NCBI GenBank assembly: GCA_014728085.1
Contig: WJMF01000164.1
Span: forward strand, 1,418-65,417
Direction of reading: 5' to 3'
DNA length: 64,000 nucleotides
Source of the DNA: Candidatus Zhuqueibacterota bacterium
Lineage (GTDB): Bacteria > Zhuqueibacterota > Zhuqueibacteria > Residuimicrobiales > Oceaniaggregativiventaceae
Below are positions 2,449-62,111 of this stretch, piece by piece. A program made the position numbers and the translations under genes. Position 1 is the stretch's first letter. Every line of letters starts with the position of its first letter. The notes beneath the pieces were generated by a model. That model made no database searches. It had not been told where the DNA came from and saw only the letters and a list, made by a program, of their open reading frames with translations.

Positions 2449-3237
2449 TTGAAAATAAAAGTATATGTTTACCTTGTTTTCATTTGTATTGCCGGGTTTT
2501 TTGGCCATTGCGCCCATATGGCGCCCCGCCCGGCGCTTGGCATCAACGAAGAGCGACTCGAGGTTATCAAAGAAGCCTTGTTTCGTAATTTTTACCATAT
2601 CAAAACCTTTAAGGGGTATGGCACTTTAAATGTCCTTACACCGGTTGAATCATTCAAAGCCGATATAGAGGCATTGATTGTAAATCCCGACTCGGTTTAT
2701 GTAAAACTTGAAGCAACTCTGGGAATAGATGTTGGGATGTTATTCGCAAGCCGGGAAGGATATTTACTCTATTCTCCTCGCCAAAACACGTTTTACAGGG
2801 ATGACTCGGCGGTTTTGGACTTGCAATCCTTTATTGGAATGAAATTAACCTTTGGAAATTTACTCGAGACATTATTGGGGCTCGAGTTGCTGGATGGGTT
2901 GAATGAGGCAACCGTCAGTGCCGTGCCATCGGAAGCGGAGATCACGGTTTCCGGGATGGTGGGAAATTTTGAGGCCATCTATACGATCGATCCGGCCAAA
3001 GGTGTTGTGAAAAATACCAGGATTTATGATACGGATAACCGCTTGATTCTTGCCGCCAAATACAGTCGCTTTATTTATAGCAGAGGGAGCTATATGCCCA
3101 AAACCATTCAAATAATAAAGCCGATAACCAAAGAATCGATCACCTTGTTTTATACTTTTGTCAAATTAAACGAGTCGATAAAACATGAGCAATTTAGAAT
3201 AAAGATTCCGGATAATGCCATTCGGGAAGAGTTGTAA
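2449..3237 (+). CDS. Hypothetical secreted protein or lipoprotein (possibly DUF4292/LolA-like)
   Basis: 262-aa ORF with a hydrophobic N-terminal signal-like segment. It sits immediately downstream of the TPR gene, as seen in FCB-group TPR + DUF4292 pairs. Start codon uncertain (TTG at 2449). Confidence 0.5.
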   Translation: MKIKVYVYLVFICIAGFFGHCAHMAPRPALGINEERLEVIKEALFRNFYHIKTFKGYGTLNVLTPVESFKADIEALIVNPDSVYVKLEATLGIDVGMLFASREGYLLYSPRQNTFYRDDSAVLDLQSFIGMKLTFGNLLETLLGLELLDGLNEATVSAVPSEAEITVSGMVGNFEAIYTIDPAKGVVKNTRIYDTDNRLILAAKYSRFIYSRGSYMPKTIQIIKPITKESITLFYTFVKLNESIKHEQFRIKIPDNAIREEL

Positions 3238-3238
3238 T

Positions 3239-4195
3239 ATGTTTAAAAAAGAAAAAGATCCATCTCTTGGCTGCAGTATCATTTTGCCGCTTTACAATGA
3301 AGAAGAATCCATATATGAACTGCACGAGCGTCTCCATAGCGTTTTACAGTCAACCGGACTGATCTATGAGATTATTTATATCGATGACGGCTCAACAGAC
3401 CGGTCTGCTGAAATGGTGGAAGCCCTGTATCAAAAACATGGCGATATAAAATTTATCCAGTTTCGGCGTAATTACGGCAAATCTGCTGCATTGTCGGCCG
3501 GATTTAAGGCGGCCAGGGGCCAATACGTTATTACGATGGACGCAGATTTGCAGGACGATCCGGCCGAGATTCCCGCACTGATCGCCAAACTCGAAGCGGG
3601 TTATGATCTCGTTTCAGGCTGGAAAAAGGTCCGCCGGGATCCGTTAAGCAAGCGTTTAGCTTCCCGGATTTATAATTTTTTTACTTCTGTGTTCAGTGGA
3701 ATACGATTGCATGATTTCAACTGCGGACTCAAAGCATACCGCCATCAGGTGATTAAATCGATAGATGTTTATGGTGAGATGCATCGATACCTGCCGGTGA
3801 TGGCCTTTAAAGATGGTTTCCGGGTTACTGAAATACCGGTTCGACATCATCCGCGTAAATATGGAAAGTCAAAATATGGAGCTGCCCGATTCTTGCGCGG
3901 TGCTTTTGATCTGATTACCATCACTTTTCTCACCCGTTATAAGAAACGACCTTTACACTTGTTTGGATTGATCGGCGCATTATCGGTTGTGCTTGGTTGT
4001 GCGGTCTTGATCGTATTGACCATTCAGAGAATTTTTTATCAAATATACCTGAGCAACAGGCCTATACTGTTCCTCGGCGTGCTGATGGTGATCGTTGGTA
4101 TTCAGTTTATATCTATCGGTTTACTGGGAGAGATGATTACAGCCCAGCGACAAGAGTCAGATCATTATTCAGTCAAACGAACATTGGGGATTTAA
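3239..4195 (+). CDS. GT2 polyprenyl-phosphate sugar synthase (GtrB/ArnC/CsbB/DPM1-like)
   Basis: N-terminal GT-A fold with SIILPLYNEE...YIDDGSTD...DADLQDD (DxD). Two C-terminal TM helices, the hallmark GtrB/CsbB architecture. ATG at 3239 directly follows the upstream stop. Confidence 0.88.
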   Translation: MFKKEKDPSLGCSIILPLYNEEESIYELHERLHSVLQSTGLIYEIIYIDDGSTDRSAEMVEALYQKHGDIKFIQFRRNYGKSAALSAGFKAARGQYVITMDADLQDDPAEIPALIAKLEAGYDLVSGWKKVRRDPLSKRLASRIYNFFTSVFSGIRLHDFNCGLKAYRHQVIKSIDVYGEMHRYLPVMAFKDGFRVTEIPVRHHPRKYGKSKYGAARFLRGAFDLITITFLTRYKKRPLHLFGLIGALSVVLGCAVLIVLTIQRIFYQIYLSNRPILFLGVLMVIVGIQFISIGLLGEMITAQRQESDHYSVKRTLGI

Positions 4196-4277
4196 GAGGT
4201 GCCGACAGAAGCTGGCCGGTTTGTTCCATTCGACTTTCCCGGATCATAAAAGAGAATTTTTTGTGAAAAAGGCATTG

Positions 4278-5588
4278 ATGGTTACATATTATTTTCCGCC
4301 GTCCGGTGGATCCGGCGTTCAGCGCACGCTTAAATTTGTCAGGTACTTGCCGGACTTTGGTATTCAGCCGGTGGTTCTAAGCGCCAGAAATGCAAATTAC
4401 CCGATTTTGGATCAAACACTCGTGGATCAAATTCCTCCTCACGTTAACGTCTATCGTTCTTTACTTTTTGAGCCTTATTCTCTTTACCGCCTGTTAACAG
4501 CTCGGCAAACTGAAGAATCCACGGATATTGCCACACTCAGTTTTACCGAAACCGACCGGGCCTCTTTGGCAGAACGGTTATCGGAATGGGTTCGTTCTGT
4601 TTTCTTTATCCCGGACGCGCGAATCGGCTGGTTGCCTTTTGCTGTACTCAAGGGGATAAGGGTTATTCAACGGGAGAGACCCGATATTATTTATTCCAGC
4701 GCTCCGCCTTATACCACTCACCTGATCGCCCTGGTGTTATCAAAATATTTTCGTCTGCCATGGGTAGCGGATTTTCGCGATTCCTGGATCGGTTGGCTTT
4801 CCACGCCTCAATGGCGACCCCCTCTTTCTCGTGCACTGGAAATGAAAATGGAACGCGCAGTTTTGCGCCATGCGCAGCGAATTATTACCGTTTCCCGCGG
4901 GGTTCGGGCGGATTTATACAGCAGGCATTCTCACTTGCCACCGGACAAATGGATTCTTTTACCCAATGGCTATGATCCTTCCGATTATGGTCGGGCCAGA
5001 CCTCGCGATCCCCGGCTGGTAATAACCTATCTGGGCTCCATGTATGGTCGGCGAAACCCCGAAACTCTGATCGAGGCACTGGAGCTTCTTTATCGTAATG
5101 ATAAAACATTGTCCGAGCGGATTCTCATTCGTTTGGTCGGGCGTATCGGCAAACCCATTCTCGATCGCATTAAAACCTCTTTGGTGTCCGGGCTTTTCCA
5201 GATCATCTCCTATGTTGATCATGCTGAAAGTCTTGCCTATTTAATGGCAACCGATCTTTGTCTTCTGATCATCGATGATGCACCCGGGAATGAAGGCATT
5301 CTGACCGGCAAGCTTTTTGAATATATTGGATCCGGACAGCCTATTCTGGCATTAGCGCCAAAAGGTGAAGCTTTTGATTTAATCAAGGGACAAAACCTCG
5401 GCGTTTGTGTAACGCCCAACGATGTCGATAGTATGGCCGATACTCTTAAGAGGTTTTTGCACTTACATTCAACCCATGGCCGGATTCCCAAAGTCGACTC
5501 TGCTGTAAAAGAGCGGTTTGACCGGCGTTATCAGAGCGGTATTTTGGCCGGTCATCTGAAACGATGTATTCGTAAAGGAGATATATGA
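4278..5588 (+). CDS. Glycosyltransferase, GT4-like (GT-B fold)
   Basis: The ORF is 4221..5588 (TTG start); the likely start is ATG 4278 or GTG 4263. N-terminal MVTYYFPPSGGSGVQR... is typical of the Glyco_trans_4 N-domain. The C-terminal half is a GT1-type domain. Confidence 0.75.
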   Translation: MVTYYFPPSGGSGVQRTLKFVRYLPDFGIQPVVLSARNANYPILDQTLVDQIPPHVNVYRSLLFEPYSLYRLLTARQTEESTDIATLSFTETDRASLAERLSEWVRSVFFIPDARIGWLPFAVLKGIRVIQRERPDIIYSSAPPYTTHLIALVLSKYFRLPWVADFRDSWIGWLSTPQWRPPLSRALEMKMERAVLRHAQRIITVSRGVRADLYSRHSHLPPDKWILLPNGYDPSDYGRARPRDPRLVITYLGSMYGRRNPETLIEALELLYRNDKTLSERILIRLVGRIGKPILDRIKTSLVSGLFQIISYVDHAESLAYLMATDLCLLIIDDAPGNEGILTGKLFEYIGSGQPILALAPKGEAFDLIKGQNLGVCVTPNDVDSMADTLKRFLHLHSTHGRIPKVDSAVKERFDRRYQSGILAGHLKRCIRKGDI

Positions 5589-6784
5589 TCTCTAAAACGG
5601 TTGCGATGCTTCTGGAAAAGGAATTTCCCACTGATTTGAGAGTGATGAATGAAGCGACGGCACTGCGCAACGCCGGAATACGGGTTGTGATTTTTTGCCT
5701 AAACTTTGGAAGCTTGAAACCGATTGAAGAGATCGAGGATGGGATTTTTGCAATTCGTAACGCCATTCCGCAACACGTGTTCAACAAGATTCATTCTACA
5801 GTCGAATTTTTCCCCTTTTACAACCGTTGGTGGAAGCGTTTTATCCGTTCATGGAATGTCTCTTTTGATGCTATTCATGTACATGATTTACCCCTTGCCC
5901 GTGTCGGATGGCAGCTTGCCGAAAAAGCCGGTGTCAAGTGGGTTTTAGATCTGCATGAAAATTATCCCGCAGCCCTGAAAATCTGGAGCTTTAGCCGAAC
6001 ATGGCCGGGCCGCTGGATTTATCGCCAAAAAGGCTGGAGACGCTATGAGCGAACAGCAGTTAAACATGCCGACCGGGCGATTGTGGTGACTGAAGAAGCT
6101 ATGGATCGATTTATTGAATCCGGATTCGAACCAGAGCATTTTGTTGTGGTTTCCAATACACCCGACCTGGAAACCATGCGATCGATATCCTTTGAAGAGA
6201 AAGCAGGATCGCGATTTCGTCAACACCTGAATATGGTTTTTACCGGTGGTTTGGGATTGCATCGCGGCCTGGAAGTGGTCATTAAGCGATTGCCTGATTT
6301 GCACGGGCAAATCCCCAATCTTAAATTATGGTTGGTTGGCGACGGCAAAGAGCGGCCAAGCCTGGAATCTCTTGCAAGGCATTGTAAGGTTGAGGACTCT
6401 ATCGAGTTTACCGGTTGGCTTTGTTTTTCAGAAGCGATGAAAATTGTTGCCAACAGTGATATTGCTTTGCTCCCGCATTTGCGGACCGAACATACCGAAA
6501 CAACCATACCGCATAAATTGTTTCAATACATGTATTTAAAAAAGCCTGTTGTTGCCTCGGATTGTACACCCATACGGCGCATATTGGATGAAACCGGGTC
6601 TGGTTTGTTATTTTCAACACAGGACCCGAAAACGCTGGACAGTTGCGTTTTACGGTTGAGAGAAAAGCCTTTGCGGGATGAGTTGGGGATGAATGGACAC
6701 AAGGCGGTGAAAACGACCTGGAACTGGCAAAACAGCAGTAAAAATTTGGTAAAGATATATCATGAATTCTTTAAAGAAAAATAA
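5585..6784 (+). CDS. Glycosyltransferase family 4 (GT-B, retaining)
   Basis: ATGA overlap with the upstream gene. C-terminal GT1 domain with EX7E-like PHKLFQYMYLKKPVVASD. Confidence 0.85.
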   Translation: MISKTVAMLLEKEFPTDLRVMNEATALRNAGIRVVIFCLNFGSLKPIEEIEDGIFAIRNAIPQHVFNKIHSTVEFFPFYNRWWKRFIRSWNVSFDAIHVHDLPLARVGWQLAEKAGVKWVLDLHENYPAALKIWSFSRTWPGRWIYRQKGWRRYERTAVKHADRAIVVTEEAMDRFIESGFEPEHFVVVSNTPDLETMRSISFEEKAGSRFRQHLNMVFTGGLGLHRGLEVVIKRLPDLHGQIPNLKLWLVGDGKERPSLESLARHCKVEDSIEFTGWLCFSEAMKIVANSDIALLPHLRTEHTETTIPHKLFQYMYLKKPVVASDCTPIRRILDETGSGLLFSTQDPKTLDSCVLRLREKPLRDELGMNGHKAVKTTWNWQNSSKNLVKIYHEFFKEK

Positions 6785-7496
6785 AAACAGCAGCCGGCAA
6801 TATTATGAGGCGGTAGCTCACCGTACCAATATCTGGACATGCGCTCCCGGCTCACCGACCTATTATCAGGAAATGGTGCGGTATGAAAGAATTATTGCCG
6901 AGCTTCCCGAGAGCGGCCTTGCTGTTGACCTGGGCTGCGGAAACGGGTATTTATCCTATCTCATGTCAAAGCGAGGATTGACCGTAATTTCCGTAGATCT
7001 GTCGATCAGCAGATTACAAAATTTACGCACCGCCATTGCCACAGAAGCACCGGACCAGGTGCAGAGTGATATTCATCAGACCGGTTTGCAATCCGCTTTC
7101 GCAGATGTGATCGTCTGTTCGGAAGTTATCGAACACATTCAAAAATACCAACAGGTCCTTCAGGAGGCGGAACGAATTTTAAAACACGACGGGATATTCA
7201 TTGTTACGGTTCCTTACAAGGAAAGATTAAAAAAAATTATCTGTCCGCACTGTCATAAATATTTTTATGCAGACGGACATTTGCACAGGTTTGATCGAAA
7301 CAACCTGGCAACAGATCTGGAGAGGTCTGGTTTGACCATACTCAAACAAAAGCGTTTCCGGCACCGGCTTTTGGTGCACCTTCAGTACCATCTGAAACTG
7401 AGATACGGATTCGTTTTGCGTTTTTTAGATCAGCTCTTCTCTGCCATTCACCCCGAGTATACCTGGTATCTTTTGGTCAAGAGCAAAAAAAAGTGA
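6762..7496 (+). CDS. Class I SAM-dependent methyltransferase with C-terminal CxxC/H zinc-ribbon-like motif
   Basis: Motif I VDLGCGNGYLS, acidic motif II and CPHCHKYFYADGHLHRF. Overlaps the upstream GT by 23 nt. Confidence 0.8.
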   Translation: MNSLKKNKNSSRQYYEAVAHRTNIWTCAPGSPTYYQEMVRYERIIAELPESGLAVDLGCGNGYLSYLMSKRGLTVISVDLSISRLQNLRTAIATEAPDQVQSDIHQTGLQSAFADVIVCSEVIEHIQKYQQVLQEAERILKHDGIFIVTVPYKERLKKIICPHCHKYFYADGHLHRFDRNNLATDLERSGLTILKQKRFRHRLLVHLQYHLKLRYGFVLRFLDQLFSAIHPEYTWYLLVKSKKK

Positions 7497-7563
7497 ACGG
7501 TTTGTTGTATGTAACGACTTGCTTTTTTCATCAAATTCTTATAAGTTTGAGAGTTGTGTAAAA

Positions 7564-10095
7564 ATGAGTGAGGTTATTGTGACAGCAAAAAAACGGGTTA
7601 AAAAGGAAAAACCGCAAGAATCGTCGACTTTTACGCCAGACCAAAAGCCGGCGTTGTTTATGATCATTATCCTGGCGATTTTATTAATCGTGCTTTATCA
7701 CCAGGTTATACTCGGGGGTATGGTGTTTCAGCCCCCGGACCGGATGACAACTCTGGCACTGCAGCCGTTTGTTCAGCAGGCTCTTAGTCAGGGTATTTAT
7801 CCTTTGTGGTGTCCCTATGTTTTCAGCGGCATGCCTTCATTTGCCAGCATGCTCACGGTTCCCATGATAAATATTGTTGACTGGTCGATGCGTACGGTTC
7901 TGCAATTCATTTTGCCACGGACGCCGGATCCCAACTTTATTTTTATTTATCTTAATTTTCTTTTACTTGCGGCTACTTTGTATTTGCTCCTGCGTCAGCA
8001 AAAAATCTCACCATTGGCGGCTTCTTTTTCCGCCATCGCAGTGACTTTATTACCACAGTTTGTTGCGTTTGTCTCATTTAGTCATAATACCAAATTTTTG
8101 TCCGTGGTTTTGATACCGTTGATTTTTTATCTCACCAAAAAAATGTTTGAAGAACGCTCTCTGTTGTATTTTTGTCTGACGGCGCTGGCCATCGGCTTTC
8201 AGCTCTTTCGGGCTCATGTTCAGGTGACGTATTATACCTTTCTAATGTTAGGGATATATTTACTGTTTACAGCTGTTACGCGGTGGCGCGAAAATCGCTC
8301 CTTAAAGCCCTTTTTAATTAATGCCGGCCTGTTGATCGGAGCTATCGCTGCCGGGCTATTGCTATCATCCGTAATTTATTTGTCTGTATATGAATATCAA
8401 CACTATTCGATCCGGGGATCCAGTGAAAATAGCGGCCTCGATTATGATTATGCCTCCAGCTGGTCTTTTCATCCGCTTGAAATGGTAACCTTTATCATTC
8501 CTTCTTTTATGGGATTTGGCGGCCAGACATATTGGGGAAAAATGCCATTTACCGATTATCCCCTCTATTTTGGTATCGGGGTATTGTTTTTGGCAGGACT
8601 TGCACTCGTTTTACGCCGGGATCGAAAGACATGGTTTTTTACAATCTTGGCCATTTTTGCTTTGGTGGTCTCTTTTGGAAAACATTTACCGGTTCTTTAT
8701 ACGCCGATGTTCAAGCTATTGCCTTTTTTCAATAAATTTCGGATTCCCAGTATGATTCATATACTGTTGAATTTTTCAATGGTTATCCTGGCGGCATATG
8801 GATTGCAGGCACTTTTCGATTATCGGAAGCAATTGGCGAAAATGAAAAAGCCGGTAATAACACAGTCTCTGCGGCGTTATTTATTTATTTTCCTGGCGGT
8901 GGTGGGGATATTTTTGTTGTTTATGTTGTTTGCCAAATCGCTTTTTATCGAATTGATTGCCGAAAGCAGAGCGCGTATGCAGCCGGCGCAACGGGAACTC
9001 GCTTATAACAATGCTTTTCTGGACAGTTTTAAAGCTCTCATTTTTATCGCCATTTCTGTTTTTATCATCTTTCAATTTCTCAGGTTTAAACTTTCCAGAT
9101 CGTTTCTCGGGGTGACCCTGATCGTCTTGATGGTAATCGATTTTTGGATTATCGATTTTAAAATTATCAATCCTCGTCCGCCTGCGAGCGAGACGGCTCA
9201 TTTTTCCGGTAATGCTGCTGTCAATTACATAAAAAAGGATAAATCGCATTATCGAATTTTTCCGGTTCTGGACAACAAAGGCGGTAACTGGTACGCCTAT
9301 CACCTTATCGAAAGCATCAATGGCTATTCTGCAGCAAAGTTGCGAATTTATCAGGATTTCCTCGAAGAAACCGGCTTTGCATCACAGGATCAATATGGGT
9401 TGAATCCCTTTATCGCCAATTTCTGGAATTTGTCGGTTCAGGAAGGAAAGTTAACGCCACAAAGGAAACCGCCACAGGCCCGCAATCAGAACCAGATCGA
9501 TTTTCACAACACGGTTCTCGATATGCTCAATGTAAAATACCTGGTGATAAATTATCTGCCCATTCCCGATCCCGGATATCAGAGGGTTCAGCATCAGCAA
9601 CCCTGGGTTTTTGAAAACGTTGACGTATTGCCGCGTGCTTTTTTCGCCGATACCGTGCAGGTGATGGAAGGGCGGGAGACGATATTTTCCTATATGAAAA
9701 GTGGAAAATTCGATCCCCGTCAAACCGCAATTGTGGAGAAAAATCCTCCTTTTGATATACTACCATCCGATCGCAACCGGGTTCGTTTGCAAGATTTTGG
9801 GCTGCATCATATTCGTTTAAATGCGGAGGTATTCAGTCCGACGGTTATGGTGCTGAGCGAGATTTACTATCCGGCAGGATGGCGGGCCTTTGTTGATGGT
9901 GTCGAAACCCCAATATATAAAACCAACTATATTTTACGTTCAGTTTTTCTCGAACCTGGTAATCACACGATCGAATTTATATTCAAGCCAAAACGTTTTT
10001 TTCTGGGAATATGGATCAGTATTGGTACGCTTTTGTTGTTGTTAATACCTGTCGGTCTTTGGTTGTATAGGACCAAATATAAAAAACGGGCGTGA
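7564..10095 (+). CDS. YfhO-family membrane protein (GT-C-type glycosyltransferase), paralog 1
   Basis: The ORF is 7519..10095 (TTG); the likely start is ATG 7564. About 13 predicted TM helices plus a C-terminal soluble domain, about 850 aa like B. subtilis YfhO. Shares conserved C-terminal motifs with the ORF at 11675..14056. Confidence 0.8.
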   Translation: MSEVIVTAKKRVKKEKPQESSTFTPDQKPALFMIIILAILLIVLYHQVILGGMVFQPPDRMTTLALQPFVQQALSQGIYPLWCPYVFSGMPSFASMLTVPMINIVDWSMRTVLQFILPRTPDPNFIFIYLNFLLLAATLYLLLRQQKISPLAASFSAIAVTLLPQFVAFVSFSHNTKFLSVVLIPLIFYLTKKMFEERSLLYFCLTALAIGFQLFRAHVQVTYYTFLMLGIYLLFTAVTRWRENRSLKPFLINAGLLIGAIAAGLLLSSVIYLSVYEYQHYSIRGSSENSGLDYDYASSWSFHPLEMVTFIIPSFMGFGGQTYWGKMPFTDYPLYFGIGVLFLAGLALVLRRDRKTWFFTILAIFALVVSFGKHLPVLYTPMFKLLPFFNKFRIPSMIHILLNFSMVILAAYGLQALFDYRKQLAKMKKPVITQSLRRYLFIFLAVVGIFLLFMLFAKSLFIELIAESRARMQPAQRELAYNNAFLDSFKALIFIAISVFIIFQFLRFKLSRSFLGVTLIVLMVIDFWIIDFKIINPRPPASETAHFSGNAAVNYIKKDKSHYRIFPVLDNKGGNWYAYHLIESINGYSAAKLRIYQDFLEETGFASQDQYGLNPFIANFWNLSVQEGKLTPQRKPPQARNQNQIDFHNTVLDMLNVKYLVINYLPIPDPGYQRVQHQQPWVFENVDVLPRAFFADTVQVMEGRETIFSYMKSGKFDPRQTAIVEKNPPFDILPSDRNRVRLQDFGLHHIRLNAEVFSPTVMVLSEIYYPAGWRAFVDGVETPIYKTNYILRSVFLEPGNHTIEFIFKPKRFFLGIWISIGTLLLLLIPVGLWLYRTKYKKRA

Positions 10096-10098
10096 AAA

Positions 10099-11559
10099 TC
10101 AGGACTTGAAAATGACCGAAATTCGTTTCCAGAGAAAGAAGAAATACAGGAGAACGATTAAAGCAGAGACAAAACTCATGCCCCATACAGAGACGGGCAG
10201 AAATTTAAAAATCGTTAAAACCACAATGGTTGAAAGACTCCATTTGATATCAGAGGAGAAAACGGCCCGCAGGGTTTTTTGCCAGGGTACCTGAGCCACT
10301 TCGCCGGTCCAGAGCAGTAGCCAGCCATAGCAGAGAACCCCGGAAAAAGAAAAAATTGCCAAAGCCAGGCGGGGGCTGTCTGCAACGCCACCGATGATCA
10401 GGGCGGCGATGCGGGAAGCCAGGATAAAAACATTGAACAGCAATCCTTTTTCCTGTTTTTCCGAAATGTTGATAATATTGGAAAGCGGAGACGCCAGAAG
10501 CAAAATAAATGCCCAGGGCGCCATAATTTGGACATAAACGCCGGCCTCCGCCCATTTTTGTCCCAGCAAAACGATAAAGAGTTCTTTGCCGACAAAGGTG
10601 AGAACCAGAAGAGGGACGAATCCGATTTGCGATAGCATTTTTACGGTTTGTAGAAAAATCAAATCGATCTTTCCTTCTCTATGGGCCTCGGCGCCTTTTT
10701 GGAAAAAGACCTGGGCAATGGCACGGCCAATGACATTTATCGGCATTCGGATAACTCTGTCACCCATCATATAGAACCCTACGATTGTTGTATTAAAAAA
10801 CAGCGCCAGGAAAAGTGTTGGAACTTGCCAAGAGAAGGTATTGATTAAACTTGCCCACAGGGAAAATTTTGGAAATTTCTTATATTTTTTCATTTGAGCG
10901 ACAAGGTTACGTCCGCTTATGCCCTTTTTAAAAATATTTTTGTCATTTTGAATAATGCCGAAGAGATGAATACAATCCTCGGAAATTTTACCGACAAACA
11001 ATCCAAGGATGAGACCCAAAGGTGAGGGGTAGAACAACAAACCAAAAAGAATCTGTATCAACACCATCAGGCCACCATAAGCAATTCTGCCCTGTGCGAG
11101 CAGTTTATAACGGTTGCGACGGGTGTTCCAGAAATTGACTGCGTTATAGCCGCCAAAGAGAATGATTCCAAAACCGGTGAGCCAGAGGTAGGGACTCAGT
11201 TGTGGAGCGTTGAGAAGGGCAGAAACAGGTTCCCTGAATATATAGAATAGAACACCACTGATCAGCGCGACGATTAATGAAAAAAACAGATGAAGTATCA
11301 TAAGATGCAGGCCGTCCCGATGTTCACTCGGTAACAGAATAGCAAATTCATAACGAAGTCCTGAAACAATGGAGAGCGTCAGAATAATGGTGGTGAGTAG
11401 CTGTAATATGCCAAAGATTTCAACAGGATAGATTCGCGACAGAACCGGGGCAGACAATACAATCATCGCCTGACTGATCGTGGTTCCCAATCCCAGTTTG
11501 AATGTGTCATTGATGAGTGAGTTGCTGCTGCGAAATTTTAGAAATGACATAGCGTCCAT
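10099..11559 (-). CDS. MOP-superfamily polysaccharide/oligosaccharide flippase (Wzx-like)
   Basis: 486 aa with about 12-14 TM helices. The N-terminal pattern is typical of polysaccharide biosynthesis (PST) flippases. Stop codon is 4 nt after the YfhO1 stop. Confidence 0.75.
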   Translation of the reverse strand: MDAMSFLKFRSSNSLINDTFKLGLGTTISQAMIVLSAPVLSRIYPVEIFGILQLLTTIILTLSIVSGLRYEFAILLPSEHRDGLHLMILHLFFSLIVALISGVLFYIFREPVSALLNAPQLSPYLWLTGFGIILFGGYNAVNFWNTRRNRYKLLAQGRIAYGGLMVLIQILFGLLFYPSPLGLILGLFVGKISEDCIHLFGIIQNDKNIFKKGISGRNLVAQMKKYKKFPKFSLWASLINTFSWQVPTLFLALFFNTTIVGFYMMGDRVIRMPINVIGRAIAQVFFQKGAEAHREGKIDLIFLQTVKMLSQIGFVPLLVLTFVGKELFIVLLGQKWAEAGVYVQIMAPWAFILLLASPLSNIINISEKQEKGLLFNVFILASRIAALIIGGVADSPRLALAIFSFSGVLCYGWLLLWTGEVAQVPWQKTLRAVFSSDIKWSLSTIVVLTIFKFLPVSVWGMSFVSALIVLLYFFFLWKRISVIFKS

Positions 11560-11674
11560 TTTTAGTTGAATTTAAGAAATCAAAAGCATTTTTCCACGAG
11601 AAAAATATTCGCTTGAACTATTGTCACAAATTTCTCAAATTACGGAGAAAATGCAAAAAGATTCTGGATAAAGA

Positions 11675-14056
11675 ATGAATGTTTTCAACCAAAGATCCAA
11701 AACGACAATCATCGCCGGCATGGTGATAACAGTCATATTGCTTTTGCTCATTCAATACCAACCCGCTTTGCTGCAGGACACCCGCATCACTGATCTCAAT
11801 CACAAGGCATTGCTGAAATACGATGAAAAACACGACCAAACGGGAGAGTCCATATCTCATCCACAGTGGCTACCCTATATTTTCTCCGGCATGCCCTTGG
11901 TAACGGATATATTAATTGTTCCAAAGACTGATATTGTGGATCAGGGGTTGCTGGATTTTTTCAACTGGTTTTCTTTTGCGCTCGGCGAGCCATTGATTTA
12001 TTTGCTAATCATCAACAGTGTAATATTTTCATGGTTCGTATTTATTTATCTAAAACAACAAAACCTTTCTACCGAATCGGCTCTTTTCCCGGCTCTGACG
12101 CTTCCATTTTTACCGCTTTTTACGGATTTGACAACGCACGGACAGCACTCGGTTTTTTATACATTTACATTATTGCCGGTTTTACTGGTTGTTATATCAA
12201 AATTATCGCAAAAGCAGAATGCTCTGTATTTATGCCTGAGTGTATTGCTCTTTGGATTCATGTTCCTGCGGGGAAGTTTATCACTTTCAGTGATGATTAT
12301 TGTCTTTCTGGTGTTTGTATTTTTGTTGTTACGTCCGGCAGCGGGCAGTGGCGACAGGTGGTTTTTCCTTTTCTTGATGGTTGTCGCTATTACGGCAGGT
12401 TTTTTGCTGTCTGCGGTACACTATTTCCCCGTGATTGCCGGTTCCTCTTTTCTAACCGAGTTGACGCAAGAATCCTTACATTTTGAGAATCCGTTCAAAG
12501 CATTTAGCGCGGTAATCCCTTCTTTTCTTCAAGTCACATCGTCTGGAACGGATTTTTCACGGCTTTATATGTACCTGGGAGGGGTTATCTTTTTCTTGGC
12601 AGGGATTGCGATGTTTTTTCGGCGGGACCGCCAAACCCGTTTTTGGAGCTTTGTTGCCCTGATCTGTTTTCTTCTTTTTTCAAGTGGATTTATGCTTATC
12701 AAACCTGTTTCGCACGACATTTTGAATCTGGTTTATTTGTTTTCGGCCTTTGCTTTTTTCGTTTTGGCCGCCTATGGAATTCAGTATCTGCAAGAGGTAT
12801 CCGTCGTGCAGAATGGCAACAAAAAATTTCTAAGAATCTATTTTTTTGTTTTTTTTGCAGTAATGTTGCTTTTTCTTATCTATCTGATTTTTGCCCGCAA
12901 TCAGTATTTAAATGTCATCGCCACTGAGGGCGTTTTTCTGACGATTCCTGAGCGAATTCAGCATTATTCCACTTTGTTATTTGATTTGATTCGAATCTTG
13001 TTTTTTCTGATTATAACATTCTATTTTATCGGACTCTGTTTGGAGCAAAAAGTAGGAATTCGCAGTCTGGTGCTCATTTTAGCGGCTATTGCTTTATTGG
13101 ACTTTGGATTCATCAACAGGCGCCTGGTTGAAACAGATTTGCATTATAACGAGGATACATATTTCAATGCCACCCCAACTGTTTATTTTATAAAATCCGA
13201 CAAGAGTATTCATCGGGTTTTGCCCATTCAAAACACAAAATGCGCCAACTGGTATGTTTTGCATGAAATTGAGAGTATTGCCGGTTTTGCACCTCAAGTC
13301 CCCGTGTTTTATAGCAGCTTTCTTGAGCAAACGGGATACAGGTATCCGTTTAATGGGTTTTTGGCCAAGTACTGGCGCATGACCATGATCAATAAAAAAC
13401 CAGAGTGGGAAGCGGTTCCCCTCATGGAAATACCGGTAAACCGTTTGAATTTTGATTATGCCATGCTGGACATGCTTAATGTAAAATATATTGTTTTGGA
13501 TTCGCTGCAAATTCCTGATCCGCGTTATGAGCTGGTCTATGATACCGGTAGACAACGCGTCTATGAAAACACACGTGTCTTGCCCCGTGTTTTTTTCGCC
13601 GATACGGTGAAAGTGATTATCGGTAAATCTCACATTTTTGAATATATGAAGAATAGACATTTTGATCCCCGCAAGACAGCGATCCTGGAGGAGGATCCGG
13701 GATTTACTCTGTTTGATGCGGATAGCAATCAGGCAGAGATCGTTTCTCTTTCGGCGCATGAAATTGTCATAGACGCCAATGCCCATAAAAACACGATTAT
13801 GCTATCAAGTGAGCCCTATTATCCCGCTGGTTGGAAAGCATATATCGATGGTATTGAGACCAGGATTTATGTAGCGAATTCCGTTCTGCGCTCAATTTGT
13901 TTGCCGGCCGGAGAACATCGTATTGTATTTCGATATCACGCAAGTGGCTATAGTTTGGGAAAGTGGACGAGTCTGAGCGTACTTTTATTCATTTTGGTCT
14001 TGCTGCTTGCCGTGCTCGCAGTATATATTAGAAATCAAACACAGAAGGCGTTATGA
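11675..14056 (+). CDS. YfhO-family membrane protein (GT-C-type), paralog 2
   Basis: 793 aa and multi-TM. Matches YfhO1 in LDMLNVKY[LI]V, P[RA]FFADTV, YYPAGW[RK]A[FY][VI]DG[VI]ET[PR]IY and the C-terminal TM segment. Confidence 0.8.
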   Translation: MNVFNQRSKTTIIAGMVITVILLLLIQYQPALLQDTRITDLNHKALLKYDEKHDQTGESISHPQWLPYIFSGMPLVTDILIVPKTDIVDQGLLDFFNWFSFALGEPLIYLLIINSVIFSWFVFIYLKQQNLSTESALFPALTLPFLPLFTDLTTHGQHSVFYTFTLLPVLLVVISKLSQKQNALYLCLSVLLFGFMFLRGSLSLSVMIIVFLVFVFLLLRPAAGSGDRWFFLFLMVVAITAGFLLSAVHYFPVIAGSSFLTELTQESLHFENPFKAFSAVIPSFLQVTSSGTDFSRLYMYLGGVIFFLAGIAMFFRRDRQTRFWSFVALICFLLFSSGFMLIKPVSHDILNLVYLFSAFAFFVLAAYGIQYLQEVSVVQNGNKKFLRIYFFVFFAVMLLFLIYLIFARNQYLNVIATEGVFLTIPERIQHYSTLLFDLIRILFFLIITFYFIGLCLEQKVGIRSLVLILAAIALLDFGFINRRLVETDLHYNEDTYFNATPTVYFIKSDKSIHRVLPIQNTKCANWYVLHEIESIAGFAPQVPVFYSSFLEQTGYRYPFNGFLAKYWRMTMINKKPEWEAVPLMEIPVNRLNFDYAMLDMLNVKYIVLDSLQIPDPRYELVYDTGRQRVYENTRVLPRVFFADTVKVIIGKSHIFEYMKNRHFDPRKTAILEEDPGFTLFDADSNQAEIVSLSAHEIVIDANAHKNTIMLSSEPYYPAGWKAYIDGIETRIYVANSVLRSICLPAGEHRIVFRYHASGYSLGKWTSLSVLLFILVLLLAVLAVYIRNQTQKAL

Positions 14057-15261
14057 AAAAACCGGATCTTTCTTTTCATAAAACCATATATATGTTTTCC
14101 GGGACCCTTAAAGGGCTCTTTTTTATCCTGGTTGTAATTTGCATATTGGTTATTATCATATATATCCAGAGTTTAATCAATGATCTGAGGGCCCAAACCA
14201 GGGAATGGATAGAACTGCGGGTTCAGGAGATACAACAGCTGGCTTCGGATGAACAGGCGGGAGACAACCTTACCTGGGGTCTGGAGAATATCATCCAAAA
14301 AACAGAGCTGCCACTGATTGTCACCGATCAGAAAGGCAATCCGGCGGCATGGTCAAACATCGGTGTAGCCCGTGATGATTGGTCGCCTGAAGCTATAAAT
14401 GAAGTACAGCGGCTGTTGAAAAAAATGCAGAGCAACAACCGGCGGTTCCCGATTACCTATAGGGGGCAGGTGGTCAATTATCTCTATTATGGTGATTCCA
14501 GGCTTACCACCCAGTTGCGTTACCTGCCTTTTATAACTATCTTCGGCCTCGGATTATTAATCTTTGCGGCCTTTATGGGATTCAGTAGCATAAAACATAG
14601 CGAACAACGCTATGTATGGGTGGGTATGGCCAAGGAAACCGCTCATCAACTCGGGACCCCTTTATCATCGCTGATGGGATGGCTTGAGATCATCAAGTTG
14701 CATCCGAATGATCCGTCGCGCATTAAACAGATGGCCGAAGATATGACCATTGATGTTAACCGTCTGGAGCAGGTCGCGGCGCGGTTTTCAAAGATCGGAT
14801 CGAAGGCAGAACTTACTATACAGGAGATCCATCCTGTTCTTCAGGAGGTGATTGCTTATTTTCAAAAGCGCTTACCCCAGAAGAGCAAAGATATTCAGCT
14901 GATAGCGGATTTAAAACCGGTTAAGCGGGTGGCTCTGAACCGGGATCTGTTTGTATGGGCAGTGGAAAATTTAATCAAAAATGCCCTTGACGCGGTAAAG
15001 CGCAGAAATGGTAAAGTAACCATTCGAACCGGTATGCTGGAGGACGAAAACAAGATTTATATTGATATCGAAGATACCGGTGTTGGGATTCCTGTGCAAA
15101 ATCGTCGAAATGTTTTCAAGCCAGGCTATAGTACAAAAAAGAGGGGATGGGGATTGGGCCTGAATGTGACAAAGCGCATTGTGGAAGAGTTGCACAAAGG
15201 AAGGGTATTCATCAAGGAGACTCATATAGACAAAGGGACAACCATGCGGATCGTGCTGTGA
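14053..15261 (+). CDS. Two-TM sensor histidine kinase (HisKA + HATPase_c)
   Basis: ATGA overlap with YfhO2. TM helices at about residues 20-40 and 150-175. H-box AHQLGTPLSSL, N box NLIKNALDA, G1 DTGVGIP, G2 GWGLGL. Confidence 0.88.
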   Translation: MKKPDLSFHKTIYMFSGTLKGLFFILVVICILVIIIYIQSLINDLRAQTREWIELRVQEIQQLASDEQAGDNLTWGLENIIQKTELPLIVTDQKGNPAAWSNIGVARDDWSPEAINEVQRLLKKMQSNNRRFPITYRGQVVNYLYYGDSRLTTQLRYLPFITIFGLGLLIFAAFMGFSSIKHSEQRYVWVGMAKETAHQLGTPLSSLMGWLEIIKLHPNDPSRIKQMAEDMTIDVNRLEQVAARFSKIGSKAELTIQEIHPVLQEVIAYFQKRLPQKSKDIQLIADLKPVKRVALNRDLFVWAVENLIKNALDAVKRRNGKVTIRTGMLEDENKIYIDIEDTGVGIPVQNRRNVFKPGYSTKKRGWGLGLNVTKRIVEELHKGRVFIKETHIDKGTTMRIVL

Positions 15262-16001
15262 CGGATTTGAGCGATAAAGTTGTTTTGGTAACCGGGAGTT
15301 CCAGAGGGCTGGGTAAGGGAATGGCCTGCGGCCTGGCACGTCATGGCGCTTCGGTGGTTGTCCATTATCTGCAAAACAGGGAAGCGGCAGAGCAAACCGG
15401 AGAGGAAATTTCAAAGATTGGCAGGGAACCCCTGATTGTACAGGCGGATGTCCGTCAATGGCAACAGGTTCAGTCTCTTATCGATAAAGTGATCCGGTTT
15501 TATGGACGTATTGATGTGATGGTAAATAATGTTGGAGCTTTTTTGCAGTCTTCCCTGGCGGATTTGGATATAGAGTCCTGGCATAATTTGTTGGATAGCA
15601 ATCTGAATAGCGCTTTTTATTGTTGTAAAGCGGTTTTACCTTATATGCGTGAACAAAAGTGGGGCAGGATTATCAATATCGCTGTGGCAAATGCGGACCG
15701 GATTCATGCTTATCAAAGAATTACCGCATATGCTATTGCCAAAACAGCGGTTTTAATTTTGACAAGATCTTTTGCTGTTGAGGAAGCGAAAAGTGGAATT
15801 ACTGTAAACGCCATCTCACCCGGCTTTATGGATAACGGAGGTATTTCAGAACAGGAAAAAACCAGACAGAGTCTAATGGTTCCTCAAAAGCGTTTGGGCA
15901 CCGTTGATGATTTGTTGCCTGTCATTTGTGCTCTTATCGACGATCGGAGCCGTTATGTAACCGGTAGCAACACGGTGGTCAGCGGAGGCTGGGGGCTCTG
16001 A
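15258..16001 (+). CDS. SDR-family oxidoreductase (FabG-like 3-oxoacyl-ACP reductase family)
   Basis: The ORF track starts at 15147 inside the HK gene; the real start is GTG 15258 (GTGA overlap with the HK stop). TGSSRGLGKG glycine motif, YAIAK (Y-x3-K) and NNVG. Confidence 0.85.
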   Translation: MTDLSDKVVLVTGSSRGLGKGMACGLARHGASVVVHYLQNREAAEQTGEEISKIGREPLIVQADVRQWQQVQSLIDKVIRFYGRIDVMVNNVGAFLQSSLADLDIESWHNLLDSNLNSAFYCCKAVLPYMREQKWGRIINIAVANADRIHAYQRITAYAIAKTAVLILTRSFAVEEAKSGITVNAISPGFMDNGGISEQEKTRQSLMVPQKRLGTVDDLLPVICALIDDRSRYVTGSNTVVSGGWGL

Positions 16002-16002
16002 A

Positions 16003-16737
16003 CTATTGTCGCGGAAATTCAAGCTCGTTTGCTACCTCATCCATTAAAGTGTCTCCCTGTTTGGATTTTTTTTCAGTGGAAAACCCGGAGGTGGTTACAT
16101 AAATTTTATAATAATAACCATAGGCGGGATAGGAATAGACCGAATTGCCATAAACGCCTTCGATTAGCGGCAACCGTTCACCGATGTTGTAGAGAAAGCG
16201 CCAAAAGCCGTTGTTTTGGCCGGCAACCAACGTGTAGGGTGTTACTTGTTTGCTTTCGGCGCTTTTAACATCGGAATATCTTCCGGCAACGCGGGTCAGT
16301 CTGTACATCGTATGCAGGCCGACAAAGGTAACCATGTTTTCCCATTTGAGAATATCTCCTTCAACTGTCCACTGGTCTCCTTTTAACGGAAAGGTATGCG
16401 GTTGCTGTTGTACACCGTCGATAACGGGGATGAATACGAGTTCAAAATCGGCCAATTCGATAGGGGTTGGCCGGCATTGGACGAAGGCGACCAATTGTTG
16501 TTTTGTAAAAGCGTGAAAAGCGCGCAAGTAGGCGGCAGTGGAAAATAGAGCAATTGCGGTGAGTAGCAAGATCAGTGAAACAATACATCCGAGTCTGGGG
16601 CTCTTTTTCTTTTTTTGGGTTTCCTTCTTCTTAAAAGCATTGCGAAGGGCCAATAAGATATAGGCTGTGATGAGCGTAACAACGAAAAGCAAAGCATAGA
16701 CAAGGATTGTGTTCATGTCTGCAAAGAGTTCTCTCAT
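16003..16737 (-). CDS. Hypothetical membrane protein (2 N-terminal TM helices + about 170-aa soluble domain)
   Basis: ATGA overlap with the upstream GT9 gene. Lys-rich loop between the two TM helices. No recognisable family. It is the last gene of the minus-strand LPS-core block. Confidence 0.55.
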   Translation of the reverse strand: MRELFADMNTILVYALLFVVTLITAYILLALRNAFKKKETQKKKKSPRLGCIVSLILLLTAIALFSTAAYLRAFHAFTKQQLVAFVQCRPTPIELADFELVFIPVIDGVQQQPHTFPLKGDQWTVEGDILKWENMVTFVGLHTMYRLTRVAGRYSDVKSAESKQVTPYTLVAGQNNGFWRFLYNIGERLPLIEGVYGNSVYSYPAYGYYYKIYVTTSGFSTEKKSKQGDTLMDEVANELEFPRQ

Positions 16738-17771
16738 TTGATTTCCTCATAAATCAACATCTTGAACTTTTCAATCACCTGTTCCACTGTGATTTCATTC
16801 ATACAATTGTACCGGTCACAGGAGGAACAGGTTTTACATTTTGTTATATTCGGCATCAACACGCAGGCGCTGTTATTATAGGGCCTCCAGCGGTTGGGAT
16901 GACAGGGGAGCAGGGGACAATAGAGACCTATAACAGGGGTTCCAACGGCCACAGCGAGATGCAAGGGTCCTGTGCTGTTGGCAATGACAAGTTTTGCCTT
17001 TTTTAACAACGCTCCCAGCTCTTTGATGTTAAGTTGACCCTCCAGTCGAATTGGTTTGGTTGTTGACAAATGCATCATCTTGTCGATGAGCGGTTTTTCG
17101 TTTTGCGTGCCGCTAACGAGAACCATCTCATTCATCTCGTTTTGGATGCGGTCTGCAAGAAGAGCAAATTTTTCTATTGGCCAGTCGAGAGCGGAACCAC
17201 CACTGCCCGGATGAATCACGATGAAGGTTTTTTTAAAAGGCTTGAGCAACGCGTTGATTTTTGTATTGGCCTCGGGAGGTATGTAAAAATAAAATCGGAC
17301 ATTATGCGGACGAGCGTCTAGTGCGGCGGCGAGGTCGAGATTCAGGTCTACTTCATGTCTGCCGCTTTTTTTGCGATGATGCGGGATCCGCAGGGTAAAG
17401 AAAAAAGAATAAGGTCTGTACCGGGTTCCGACCCTGACCGGTATTCGCGCCAACCAGCAAATCAGCGCCAGACTGAAAGTGGGGTGGAGCAAGAGGGCGG
17501 CATCAAAGCGTTGTGATTTAATTTTTTTTAAAAGTTGAAAAAATATCGTCAGGGGGCTTCTTCCCGAACCAGTCAGAAGGATTTGGTCCAGGTGCGGATG
17601 TCCCTGAACAACTTGATATGTATAGGGTTTGATCAGCATGGCGATATATGCGGCGGGATAACGTTTTCTCAGAGCGGTGAGAACCGGAGTGGAAAGGATA
17701 ACATCGCCCATTCGGTCGGTGCGAATGACGAGAAAGCGTTTGTATAAAGTTGTGTTTTCTTTTTTTGTCAT
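16734..17771 (-). CDS. GT9 family glycosyltransferase (LPS heptosyltransferase-like) with C-terminal Cys4 cluster
   Basis: N-terminal MGDVILSTPVLTALRKRYP matches the RfaC/RfaF GT9 signature. C-terminal KCKTCSSCDRYNC tail. Confidence 0.85.
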   Translation of the reverse strand: MTKKENTTLYKRFLVIRTDRMGDVILSTPVLTALRKRYPAAYIAMLIKPYTYQVVQGHPHLDQILLTGSGRSPLTIFFQLLKKIKSQRFDAALLLHPTFSLALICWLARIPVRVGTRYRPYSFFFTLRIPHHRKKSGRHEVDLNLDLAAALDARPHNVRFYFYIPPEANTKINALLKPFKKTFIVIHPGSGGSALDWPIEKFALLADRIQNEMNEMVLVSGTQNEKPLIDKMMHLSTTKPIRLEGQLNIKELGALLKKAKLVIANSTGPLHLAVAVGTPVIGLYCPLLPCHPNRWRPYNNSACVLMPNITKCKTCSSCDRYNCMNEITVEQVIEKFKMLIYEEIK

Positions 17772-18409
17772 TAGATCGCTTCCAGAACGGTGTTGATTTC
17801 GAGTGCGGAAATGGCCCCTTCTCTGATAATGCGAACAGGATTTTTGGTAACATCGATTACCGTCGAGGGCACATTGGAGGGTGAGGGGCCGCTATCGACG
17901 ATGCAGTCCAGTTGATCGCCAAAATAGTCATAAACGTCGTGAGCTGTGGTTGCGGCCGGGAAATTGCTCTTGTTTGCACTAGTAGAAACAATTGGAAATC
18001 CGCAATTTTTTAACAGAGCTAAACAAATGGGGTAATCAGGGATGCGTATAGCGATCGTTTTGGTTTTTCTTGGCGCAAAATCCTGTAAATTTGATGAGGC
18101 AAGAAAGACCATTGTTAATGGGCCCGGCCAAAAATTTTCAGCCAGTATTTCAGCTGATCCGGGAATCTCTTCAACGAGATAACGCACCTGAAGAATATCG
18201 GCTGCGATTAAAATCATGGCTTTGCTTTGGTCGCGGCCTTTAAGGGTAAAAATTTGATCGACCGCATTGACGTTAAACGCATCGCACCCTATTCCATAAA
18301 TCGTTTCTGTGGGATAGCCGATCACACCGCCGGTTTGTAAAACGTGGCCTACCCGGCTGATCAGATCGGGTTCCGGTTGAATGGGATCTATTTTGAGTAT
18401 TTTATTCAT
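17771..18409 (-). CDS. tsaC: L-threonylcarbamoyladenylate synthase (YrdC/TsaC family)
   Basis: 212 aa; GGVIGYPTETIYGIGCDAFN YrdC signature. Confidence 0.85.
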   Translation of the reverse strand: MNKILKIDPIQPEPDLISRVGHVLQTGGVIGYPTETIYGIGCDAFNVNAVDQIFTLKGRDQSKAMILIAADILQVRYLVEEIPGSAEILAENFWPGPLTMVFLASSNLQDFAPRKTKTIAIRIPDYPICLALLKNCGFPIVSTSANKSNFPAATTAHDVYDYFGDQLDCIVDSGPSPSNVPSTVIDVTKNPVRIIREGAISALEINTVLEAI

Positions 18410-29764: not shown

Positions 29765-29806
29765 GTTACAAATAAATCTAGGGTTATACTGTGTTAAAAA
29801 TCACAT

Positions 29807-49194: not shown

Positions 49195-49229
49195 CGGTGA
49201 TTGTAAATTGGCTAATATGGGGTAAAATT

Positions 49230-56686: not shown

Positions 56687-56687
56687 A

Positions 56688-57449: not shown

Positions 57450-57462
57450 TAAGGATGAATTT

Positions 57463-57732: not shown

Positions 57733-57739
57733 TATGTAA

Positions 57740-60839: not shown

Positions 60840-60842
60840 TAA

Positions 60843-62111
<1,269 letters not shown>

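Follow-up and report, generated by a model that had tools for sequence, protein, structure and literature searches.

We examined a 64,000-nucleotide (64-kb) stretch of DNA (the window) from Candidatus Zhuqueibacterota bacterium (contig WJMF01000164.1 of assembly GCA_014728085.1), in which the region under study, positions 3239 to 14056, encodes a predicted glycosylation pathway that includes YfhO-A, a protein of the YfhO family of GT-C glycosyltransferases. The first gene of the region encodes a family 2 glycosyltransferase (GT2; 3239 to 4195, + strand), whose ATG at 3239 lies one base past the TAA stop of the upstream gene. On the same strand follow GT4a (4221 to 5588), a family 4 glycosyltransferase (GT4) identified as a soluble GT-B enzyme by Pfam Glyco_transf_4, an AlphaFold2 (AF2) model, and Foldseek; GT4b (5585 to 6784; Pfam), a second GT4 that accompanies the next gene as an accessory partner; and a class I S-adenosylmethionine-dependent methyltransferase (6762 to 7496; Pfam Methyltransf_11 and Methyltransf_23), the start of which overlaps the end of GT4b. 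YfhO-A (858 amino acids [aa]; 7519 to 10095, +) is separated by a MOP/Wzx-type flippase gene (10099 to 11559, −) from a second YfhO protein, YfhO-B (793 aa; 11675 to 14056, +). GT2, both GT4 genes, and the methyltransferase stand in series, either overlapping or no more than 26 bp apart; the MOP gene and YfhO-A converge across a 3-bp gap, and 115 bp separate the MOP gene from the divergent YfhO-B. YfhO-B shares an ATGA stop-start overlap with a sensor histidine kinase that has two transmembrane (TM) helices (14053 to 15261, +; Pfam HisKA and HATPase_c; helices at residues 24 to 42 and 158 to 176), after which comes an SDR-family oxidoreductase (15276 to 16001, +, start approximate; NCBIfam SDR models and synteny). 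An earlier note on this DNA had listed the GT2, the two GT4s, the methyltransferase, the flippase, and the two YfhO proteins as one module, and all of these open reading frames (ORFs) are present. The gene order was identical in a relative with 82% identity (L087; comparison loci carry L numbers), and portions of it recur in several phyla, so the arrangement is more than chance. A scan for sigma-70 promoters and terminators was not above background (41 found versus 31.8 expected) and was ignored for operon calls.

GT2 matched Pfam Glycos_transf_2 with 124.5 bits, contains a DADLQDD motif, and ends in two hydrophobic helices (residues 252 to 270 and 284 to 302). Its best NCBIfam models were ArnC (212 bits; cut-off, 529) and PgfS (163 bits); neither score reached the equivalog cut-off, nor did that for the AglJ model TIGR04182 (87 bits). 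Over its full length it matched the ArnC cryo-EM structures 9bhc, 9hwj, and 8vxh (E, ∼3e-57), and it also matched the Synechocystis GtrB structure 5ekp (sll0501; E, 2e-34). The structure matches and the helix pair bear out the GtrB/CsbB type given in the earlier note and assign the protein by sequence to the polyprenyl-phosphate glycosyltransferase class. We treat this class as established; the predicted product would be an undecaprenyl-phosphate (Und-P) sugar. GT4a belongs to a large family with 50 to 57% identity across KSB1 and Calditrichota. The fold of its AF2 model (pLDDT, 87.6), which has MshA, ManT, BshA, PglA, PimA, and WaaG as Foldseek neighbors, is modeled as that of a generic retaining GT4-like enzyme; it indicates no acceptor class and separates none of the readings discussed below. 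Searches of PDB sequences with YfhO-A, GT4a, and the MOP protein returned nothing useful. A methylated sugar, which the earlier note suggested from the methyltransferase, would be plausible.

YfhO-A and YfhO-B scored 36.4 and 32.9 bits, respectively, against Pfam YfhO (PF09586; gathering threshold, 28.5), with both matches confined to the last 60 to 77 residues. The Pfam alignment spans only model positions 755 to 835 of 835, and full-length homology was found to Bacteroidales proteins annotated as YfhO. All 44 members of an alignment of YfhO-A homologues (A1) likewise matched Pfam YfhO at the C terminus only (best E, 1.3e-15). The AF2 model of YfhO-A (pLDDT, 84; pTM, 0.83) has ∼13 TM helices, a beta-rich domain on the periplasmic side (approximately residues 550 to 824), and a C-terminal TM helix. 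YfhO-A has the multi-TM core of GT-C enzymes together with the acidic residue that they conserve in extracytoplasmic loop 1, here the near-invariant D74 after TM1, and the helix order of the model places H189, H233, R299, E321, and R408 on periplasmic loops. We defined as near-invariant the 47 positions conserved at ≥93% in 81 sequences from the Fibrobacterota-Chlorobiota-Bacteroidota (FCB) superphylum. YfhO-A is confidently modeled as a GT-C enzyme, and its true start may lie 15 to 20 codons further downstream. The earlier note had proposed profile searches and a structural model as checks and had staked its reading on YfhO/GT-C matches and on the TM pair of GT2; the searches, including one of the MOP protein against Pfam Polysacc_synt_3 (68.8 bits), and the model came out in its favor.

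Homologues carry the labels "candidate division KSB1," Calditrichota, or Zhuqueibacterota, but the family extends much further. With one genome scanned per species, YfhO-A relatives came up at no fewer than 567 loci, in metagenome-assembled genomes (MAGs) labeled KSB1, Caldithrix, Marinimicrobia, Ignavibacteria, Chlorobi, Kapaibacteria, Kryptoniota, Eisenbacteria, Krumholzibacteriota, Zixibacteria, Cloacimonadota, and Bacteroidota; several of these labels are unreliable. The pathway logic of the earlier note, a GT2 of the polyprenyl-phosphate class with YfhO-A as the GT-C enzyme, stood; that the family is FCB-wide, and this YfhO not peculiar to one genome, was missing from the note. Among the doubtful labels is that of L046 (CAZSOP010000107.1), a species-level relative (88 to 98% protein identity) titled "uncultured Cytophagia bacterium," whose proteins group with KSB1. 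Other MAG titles in the scan ("binchicken" records; archaeon, Parcubacteria, Hyphomicrobiales, and Chromatiales) also look like taxonomic mislabels.

We analyzed the gene neighborhoods of 86 YfhO loci, plus L088. An ArnC-like GT2 was counted as a neighbor if it scored ≥250 bits and lay ≤10 kb from YfhO, and frequencies were taken over the 41 loci with sufficient upstream flank; MOP neighbors were found with a hidden Markov model built from five MOP sequences, as phmmer with the MOP protein of the window alone underdetected them. An ArnC-like GT2 was near YfhO in 15 of the 41 long-flank loci, across several FCB phyla (6/12 KSB1-like loci and 9/29-30 other FCB loci). GT4a was upstream in 13/41, often immediately adjacent, and it was directly 5′ of YfhO in L001, L008, L010, L022, L026, L032, L033, L060, L071, L075, and L082. 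Fifteen loci, including those of Caldithrix and Marinimicrobia, had a MOP flippase directly 5′ of YfhO. The pair of GT4b and methyltransferase also occurred in L002, L061, and L087. The most constant neighbor of the FCB YfhO family was the histidine kinase, which the module of the earlier note had omitted. It was directly 3′ of YfhO in 18/21 KSB1/Calditrichota-like loci and in 14/50 others, mostly Marinimicrobia (kinase-bearing loci include L001, L002, L004 to L011, L048 to L051, L055, L056, L059, L061, L062, L064, L072, L077, L079, L083, and L085), and its H198 and its N, G1, and G2 boxes are invariant. No response regulator adjoins the kinase in the window; the nearest candidates are a sigma-54 NtrC-type protein (26623 to 28005, −) and two REC-DUF4388 proteins (21477 to 24361, −).

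Upstream of GT2 lie two further conserved neighbors, a TPR-repeat protein (388 to 2436, +; Pfam TPR families) and, directly 5′ of GT2, a DUF4292/LolB-like lipoprotein (2449 to 3237, +; Pfam DUF4292, 55 bits), the latter with a weak match to NCBIfam LolB1_Flavo (36.8 bits, under the cut-off). The order TPR, DUF4292, GT2, GT4a, YfhO, histidine kinase recurs in KSB1 (L001, L007, L008, L018, and L088), with the SDR gene after the kinase in L001, L007, and L008; the L019 locus stops before the kinase position. The trio of YfhO, kinase, and SDR is syntenic in the KSB1 loci L001, L004, L005, L007 to L009, L021, and L027, and TPR, DUF4292, and GT2 are syntenic in KSB1-like and Marinimicrobia loci (L001, L007, L008, L018, L019, L079, L083, L085, and L088). 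TPR and DUF4292 both accompany GT2 in KSB1 and Caldithrix loci, and TPR alone in Marinimicrobia; a link between outer membrane lipoprotein handling and the glycosylation pathway is possible. Loci of the Eisenbacteria, Krumholzibacteriota, and Zixibacteria type have no kinase. There, a short TM-less GT2, with PpgS, AglJ, and Dol-P-hexose transferases as its best matches, is directly 3′ of YfhO and is followed, two genes 3′ of YfhO, by an unusual fused initiating enzyme of ∼710 to 760 aa that joins a GT2, CoA_binding_3, and a Bac_transf phosphoglycosyltransferase (PGT) (L023, L042, L052, L067, and L084).

These neighborhoods bear on whether the cluster encodes one pathway. In two loci (L004 and L005), YfhO, the kinase, and SDR stand without any glycosyltransferase within 10 kb upstream, so linkage of YfhO to glycosyltransferases is frequent but not obligatory. 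The conserved unit might then be YfhO, the kinase, and SDR, supplied with donors from elsewhere, and GT2, the GT4s, the methyltransferase, and the MOP protein would belong to a separate pathway for lipopolysaccharide (LPS) core, O-antigen, or exopolysaccharide. Several observations are consistent with such a split: in the L004 genome, GT4a (P0221) stands apart from YfhO on one 1.78-Mb contig, LPS core genes follow our cluster closely on the opposite strand, and a GT9 gene directly follows GT2 in L010 and L051. However, GT2, GT4a, and MOP genes recur beside YfhO in Marinimicrobia, Eisenbacteria, and Calditrichota, and because their arrangements differ between these distant phyla, the recurrence goes beyond inherited gene order alone. 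We consider two separate pathways quite improbable.

We lean, with modest confidence, toward a single multicomponent transmembrane glycosylation pathway centered on YfhO-A. The ArnC/GtrB-like GT2 would move a sugar from a nucleotide sugar onto Und-P at the cytoplasmic face; the lipid-linked sugar would then cross the inner membrane, with the MOP protein as the sole nearby flippase candidate; and YfhO-A, given its modeled fold and loop residues, would pass the sugar to a periplasmic acceptor. The cytoplasmic GT4a, GT4b, and methyltransferase would either build and methylate an acceptor glycan or lengthen the lipid-linked donor ahead of flipping. YfhO-B would contribute a new specificity or act as a noncatalytic partner, and an envelope signal is probably coupled to the pathway through the co-transcribed histidine kinase. 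The enzyme classes fit this reading, as do the polyprenyl-monophosphate GT2s to which YfhO is linked repeatedly and independently. Moreover, all YfhO-family enzymes described in PMC8035078 and PMC12041528 act with a GT-A partner whose product is a C55-P-monosaccharide (CsbB/YfhO, GtrB/PgtC2, and PgfS/PgfM1/M2), and a Wzx-type flippase, GacK, has been proposed for an Und-P-sugar (PMC8035078).

Several points weigh against this pathway. About half of the long-flank loci have no GT2 nearby, so the GT2-YfhO linkage is facultative. No GtrA-like ORF, and hence no GtrA-type flippase, was found in the 64-kb window. The MOP protein itself gave weak NCBIfam MOP matches and is similar to Escherichia coli WzxC (E, 9e-9), and the usual cargo of MOP/Wzx proteins consists of oligosaccharides linked to undecaprenyl pyrophosphate (Und-PP); the cargo here could be an Und-P-sugar, as for GacK, or a separate oligosaccharide. 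The GT2-PGT fusion that follows YfhO in some phyla points to Und-PP-linked glycans. Furthermore, a simple three-component system does not require GT4a, GT4b, or a methyltransferase, and the function of the FCB YfhO family is predicted from genes and models alone.

A different role for YfhO-A is suggested by its relatives in Bacteroidales. A tblastn search of PLSDB with YfhO-A returned matches from Bacteroides finegoldii, Parabacteroides distasonis, Phocaeicola, Prevotella, and Bernardetia (24 to 25% identity over 75 to 87% of YfhO-A; E, 1e-32 to 1e-41), and those records that are annotated name a "YfhO family protein." The KSB1 family profile aligned end to end with B. finegoldii YfhO (hhalign probability, 100%; E, 2.8e-60; 759 columns), and the Bacteroidales proteins keep 38 to 42 of the 47 near-invariant residues. 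In B. finegoldii and P. distasonis, yfhO adjoins ahcY (sahH), as in a July 2026 preprint that nominates the sahH-adjacent YfhO, in silico only, as the missing Bacteroidota O-oligosaccharyltransferase (OTase) and reports that Bacteroides yfhO is predicted to be essential and that the enzyme has been missing for >15 years (bioRxiv 10.64898/2026.07.27.740950). By sequence, YfhO-A is a full-length homologue of these proteins, a statement of homology and not of tree-based orthology. Because the FCB family includes the Bacteroidales YfhO, the question has already been framed in the literature as a search for the missing OTase. The preprint is the sole paper in the library searched that discusses a YfhO-family protein of a diderm, in line with the view of the earlier note that the family is little characterized in such bacteria; the characterized YfhO-type GT-C enzymes in the literature we found are all from Gram-positive bacteria (PMC8035078, PMC12041528), and a 2023 study assigned many YfhO-annotated proteins to a separate, uncharacterized YfhO-like GT-C family (PMC10584680).

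We considered two further features of these loci and set both aside. The window does encode SahH (AdoHcyase; 60852 to 62111), which adjoins MetK (59703 to 62111 for the pair, +), but it lies 47 kb from the cluster and was rejected as a counterpart of the Bacteroides linkage; since sahH is not beside YfhO here, the yfhO-sahH adjacency of Bacteroides is not ancestral to the family. GT4 and GT2 genes beside Parabacteroides YfhO were dropped as support because they are unrelated to GT4a and GT2 of the window. The PLSDB records NZ_OY725917.1, NZ_OY725760.1, OY725987.1, and NC_022111.1 (L089, L090, and L092; from B. finegoldii, P. distasonis, Phocaeicola massiliensis, and Prevotella) are labeled as plasmids, carry the housekeeping genes ahcY, upp, and adenosine kinase, and resemble chromosomal fragments or a second chromosome; they entered the PLSDB search only through that mislabeling.

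On this homology, YfhO-A might be an OTase that hands over a preassembled, partly methylated oligosaccharide as one block to Ser/Thr residues of periplasmic and outer membrane proteins, equivalent in the FCB group to the general system of Bacteroidota. Assembly of the glycan on its carrier would fall to GT4a, GT4b, and the methyltransferase, and the MOP protein would be a Wzx flippase. The cluster then has the make-up of Bacteroidota O-glycosylation loci, which consist of a Wzx flippase, glycosyltransferases (Gtfs), and methyltransferases (Mtfs) and whose OTase is unidentified (PMC6120980). The carrier could be Und-PP, with the PGT encoded elsewhere, or Und-P, started by the ArnC-like GT2 in the manner of AglJ, an option that is attractive but unproven. 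The GT2-PGT fusion near YfhO in other FCB phyla also fits an OTase, but phmmer with E. coli WcaJ and WecA detected no initiating PGT in the window or among the KSB1, Calditrichota, and Marinimicrobia loci examined, the fusion being confined to loci of the Eisenbacteria, Krumholzibacteriota, and Zixibacteria type, and the recurrent linkage is to polyprenyl-monophosphate GT2s. Further, the characterized YfhO enzymes all transfer a single sugar from Und-P (PMC8035078, PMC12041528), O-glycosylation has been shown within Bacteroidota only, and the OTase claim of the preprint is a prediction. Overall, we judge an OTase of this kind unlikely.

A narrower version combines the OTase with an Und-P donor. 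Here, the FCB YfhO would be the OTase of the Bacteroidota type. In KSB1-like bacteria its donor would begin as an Und-P-linked sugar made by GT2, grow through GT4a, GT4b, and the methyltransferase, and, once flipped by the MOP protein, be moved en bloc by YfhO-A, with the kinase monitoring the process and YfhO-B specialized or noncatalytic; we regard this as a long shot. Such a route would be a bacterial analogue of haloarchaeal AglJ/AglP/AglR/AglB that needs no PGT. In the Agl pathway of Haloferax volcanii, AglJ starts the glycan on a polyprenyl monophosphate, AglG, AglI, and AglE together with the methyltransferase AglP extend it in the cytoplasm, and the MOP-like flippase AglR and the GT-C enzyme AglB finish the pathway. 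By analogy, an Agl-like scheme would account for every gene in the cluster without a PGT. The Agl system differs, however, in being archaeal, in having AglB/STT3 as its GT-C enzyme, and in extending its glycan with GT2 rather than GT4 enzymes.

The single pathway that we favor can also be set beside characterized systems. CsbB/GtcA/YfhO, which glycosylates lipoteichoic and wall teichoic acids in Bacillus subtilis, Staphylococcus aureus, and Listeria monocytogenes, likewise joins a GT2 with a C-terminal TM hairpin to a YfhO-family GT-C enzyme that scores above the Pfam YfhO threshold and uses a lipid-linked sugar outside the cytoplasm. In contrast, our host is a diderm, where teichoic acid would not be expected, the candidate flippase belongs to the MOP/Wzx and not the GtrA/GtcA type, Pfam YfhO aligns only with the C-terminal 60 to 77 residues, and there are extra partners in GT4a and the histidine kinase. 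The streptococcal protein O-glycosylation systems GtrB/PgtC2 and PgfS/PgfM1/PgfE/PgfM2 (PMC12041528), whose acceptors are extracytoplasmic proteins, share YfhO-family GT-C enzymes, and the Pgf locus shares the PgfS-like GT2 and two GT-C paralogues (PgfM1/PgfM2); they differ in having Gram-positive hosts and no MOP flippase, GT4, or histidine kinase partner, and the second paralogue here has lost half of the invariant residues of the family. The lfg-type O-glycosylation of Bacteroidota resembles our locus in its homologous YfhO and in a Wzx-like flippase, glycosyltransferases, and a methyltransferase. Here, however, the phylum is KSB1-like, and YfhO is physically linked to glycosyltransferases, an ArnC-like GT2, and a histidine kinase; glycoproteins would be a prediction for this lineage, and in Bacteroides, too, the OTase role is a predicted one. 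The group A carbohydrate system GacI/GacJ/GacK/GacL offers a proposed precedent for a Wzx-type flippase that serves an Und-P-monosaccharide and a precedent for a TM-less GT2 such as the one after YfhO in Eisenbacteria-type loci, although GacL is a PMT_2-type GT-C enzyme, not YfhO, and the host is Gram-positive. The logic of lipid carrier and GT-C enzyme is a familiar one, but it is found here with a YfhO-type enzyme in diderms and with the previously unremarked partners GT4a and the histidine kinase.

The earlier note had described the two YfhO proteins as GT-C paralogues, but by sequence they are not equivalent. YfhO-A and YfhO-B share 31% identity across 791 columns (E, 6e-122), and YfhO-B retains 24 of the 47 near-invariant residues and has lost 23. 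For instance, D74 is replaced by N, H189 by Q, H233 by S, Q235 by S, E321 by K, and K607 by V; R299 is lost, and the P-x-F-x-x-F-R-x-P loop (402 to 410), including R408, is deleted. A pairwise BLASTP comparison shows the same losses. Only two close homologues of YfhO-B were found in a set of 5.8 billion proteins, and its best scores were to the nearest KSB1 orthologues of YfhO-A, which indicates duplication within this lineage and led us to reject horizontal acquisition from another phylum. We also rejected a pseudogene, given the intact ORF and a dN/dS of 0.15 against the L046 orthologue (neighboring genes, 0.05 to 0.34), a value that denotes purifying selection. By these comparisons YfhO-B is a recent, lineage-specific, and strongly diverged duplicate; it is probably not a catalyst equivalent to YfhO-A and may be either neofunctionalized, with a new specificity, or a noncatalytic partner.

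The genes around the cluster bear on the acceptor. Two GT9 genes and an LpxL-like acyltransferase (16734 to 20340) as well as LpxK and LpxB (28117 to 31039) are encoded in the window, as the earlier note had said of lipid A and LPS core enzymes, together with a TonB-dependent receptor and a SurA-like protein, so the host is an LPS-bearing diderm. One further alternative is a modification of lipid A or LPS core of the ArnC/ArnT type that would make the cell resistant to cationic peptides, the histidine kinase acting as PmrB does. ArnC is the best NCBIfam and PDB match of GT2, and both the adjacent kinase and the lipid A and core genes of the window would suit such a pathway. On the other hand, GT2 falls far below the ArnC equivalog cut-off, no ArnA, ArnB, or ArnD domain occurs in any scanned ORF of the window, the GT-C enzyme is of the YfhO type, and the YfhO family is a widely conserved core gene and not an inducible accessory; we find this alternative very hard to credit. 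More broadly, both ArnC/ArnT (with ArnE/F) and GtrA/GtrB/GtrC share with our locus a diderm host and a polyprenyl-phosphate sugar synthase, from the same class of GT2, that has a periplasmic GT-C enzyme as its partner, but YfhO-A is not of the ArnT/GtrC type, and ArnE, ArnF, and GtrA are absent as well. For the acceptor of the favored pathway, our tentative first choice is Ser/Thr of envelope proteins or an O-glycan on them. LPS core or lipid A is a more doubtful second, ranked there because GT9 and LpxL genes are nearby in KSB1 and because GT9 directly follows GT2 in two loci, and something else altogether is about as doubtful.

These results matter beyond the locus itself. YfhO-A represents a distinct and very large subfamily of YfhO, conserved throughout the FCB superphylum as an envelope gene, with the Bacteroidales OTase candidate among its members. 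Loci of the KSB1 type add a linkage that is absent from Bacteroides, that of YfhO with a polyprenyl-phosphate GT2, a specific GT4, a Wzx-type flippase, and a histidine kinase, and thereby supply partner genes and a donor hypothesis that could be tested in tractable Bacteroidota, along with near-invariant residues for mutagenesis. If the acceptor is a protein, these loci would help to define the pathway; if it is LPS, YfhO-A would represent a new class of LPS-modifying GT-C enzyme.

Other features of the window were recorded in passing. Just 3′ of YfhO, the kinase, and SDR, the block at 16734 to 20340 lies on the opposite strand (−) in the order GT9, YciO/Sua5-like, GT9, LpxL-like, so that a tRNA modification-like YciO gene sits between two LPS core glycosyltransferases; the block is conserved in KSB1 genomes (L004, L009, L021, L027, and L046). 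The lipid A cluster (28117 to 31964, −) runs LpxK, DUF374, LpxB, and then a Gfo/Idh/MocA oxidoreductase, which beside LpxB could mean a GnnA-like route to a GlcN3N-type lipid A backbone. The IIC and IID components of a mannose-family phosphotransferase system (PTS) and enzyme I (PtsI) are encoded within 56000 to 59527 (+), with an HPr-like 89-aa ORF at 57463 to 57732 (+); no IIA or IIB gene was seen among the window ORFs scanned. Finally, a 600-aa protein (49197 to 50999, +) combines a FlgD_ig domain with a C-terminal Por_Secre_tail, the sorting domain of type IX secretion, which suggests that this organism has a type IX secretion system, like other FCB bacteria.

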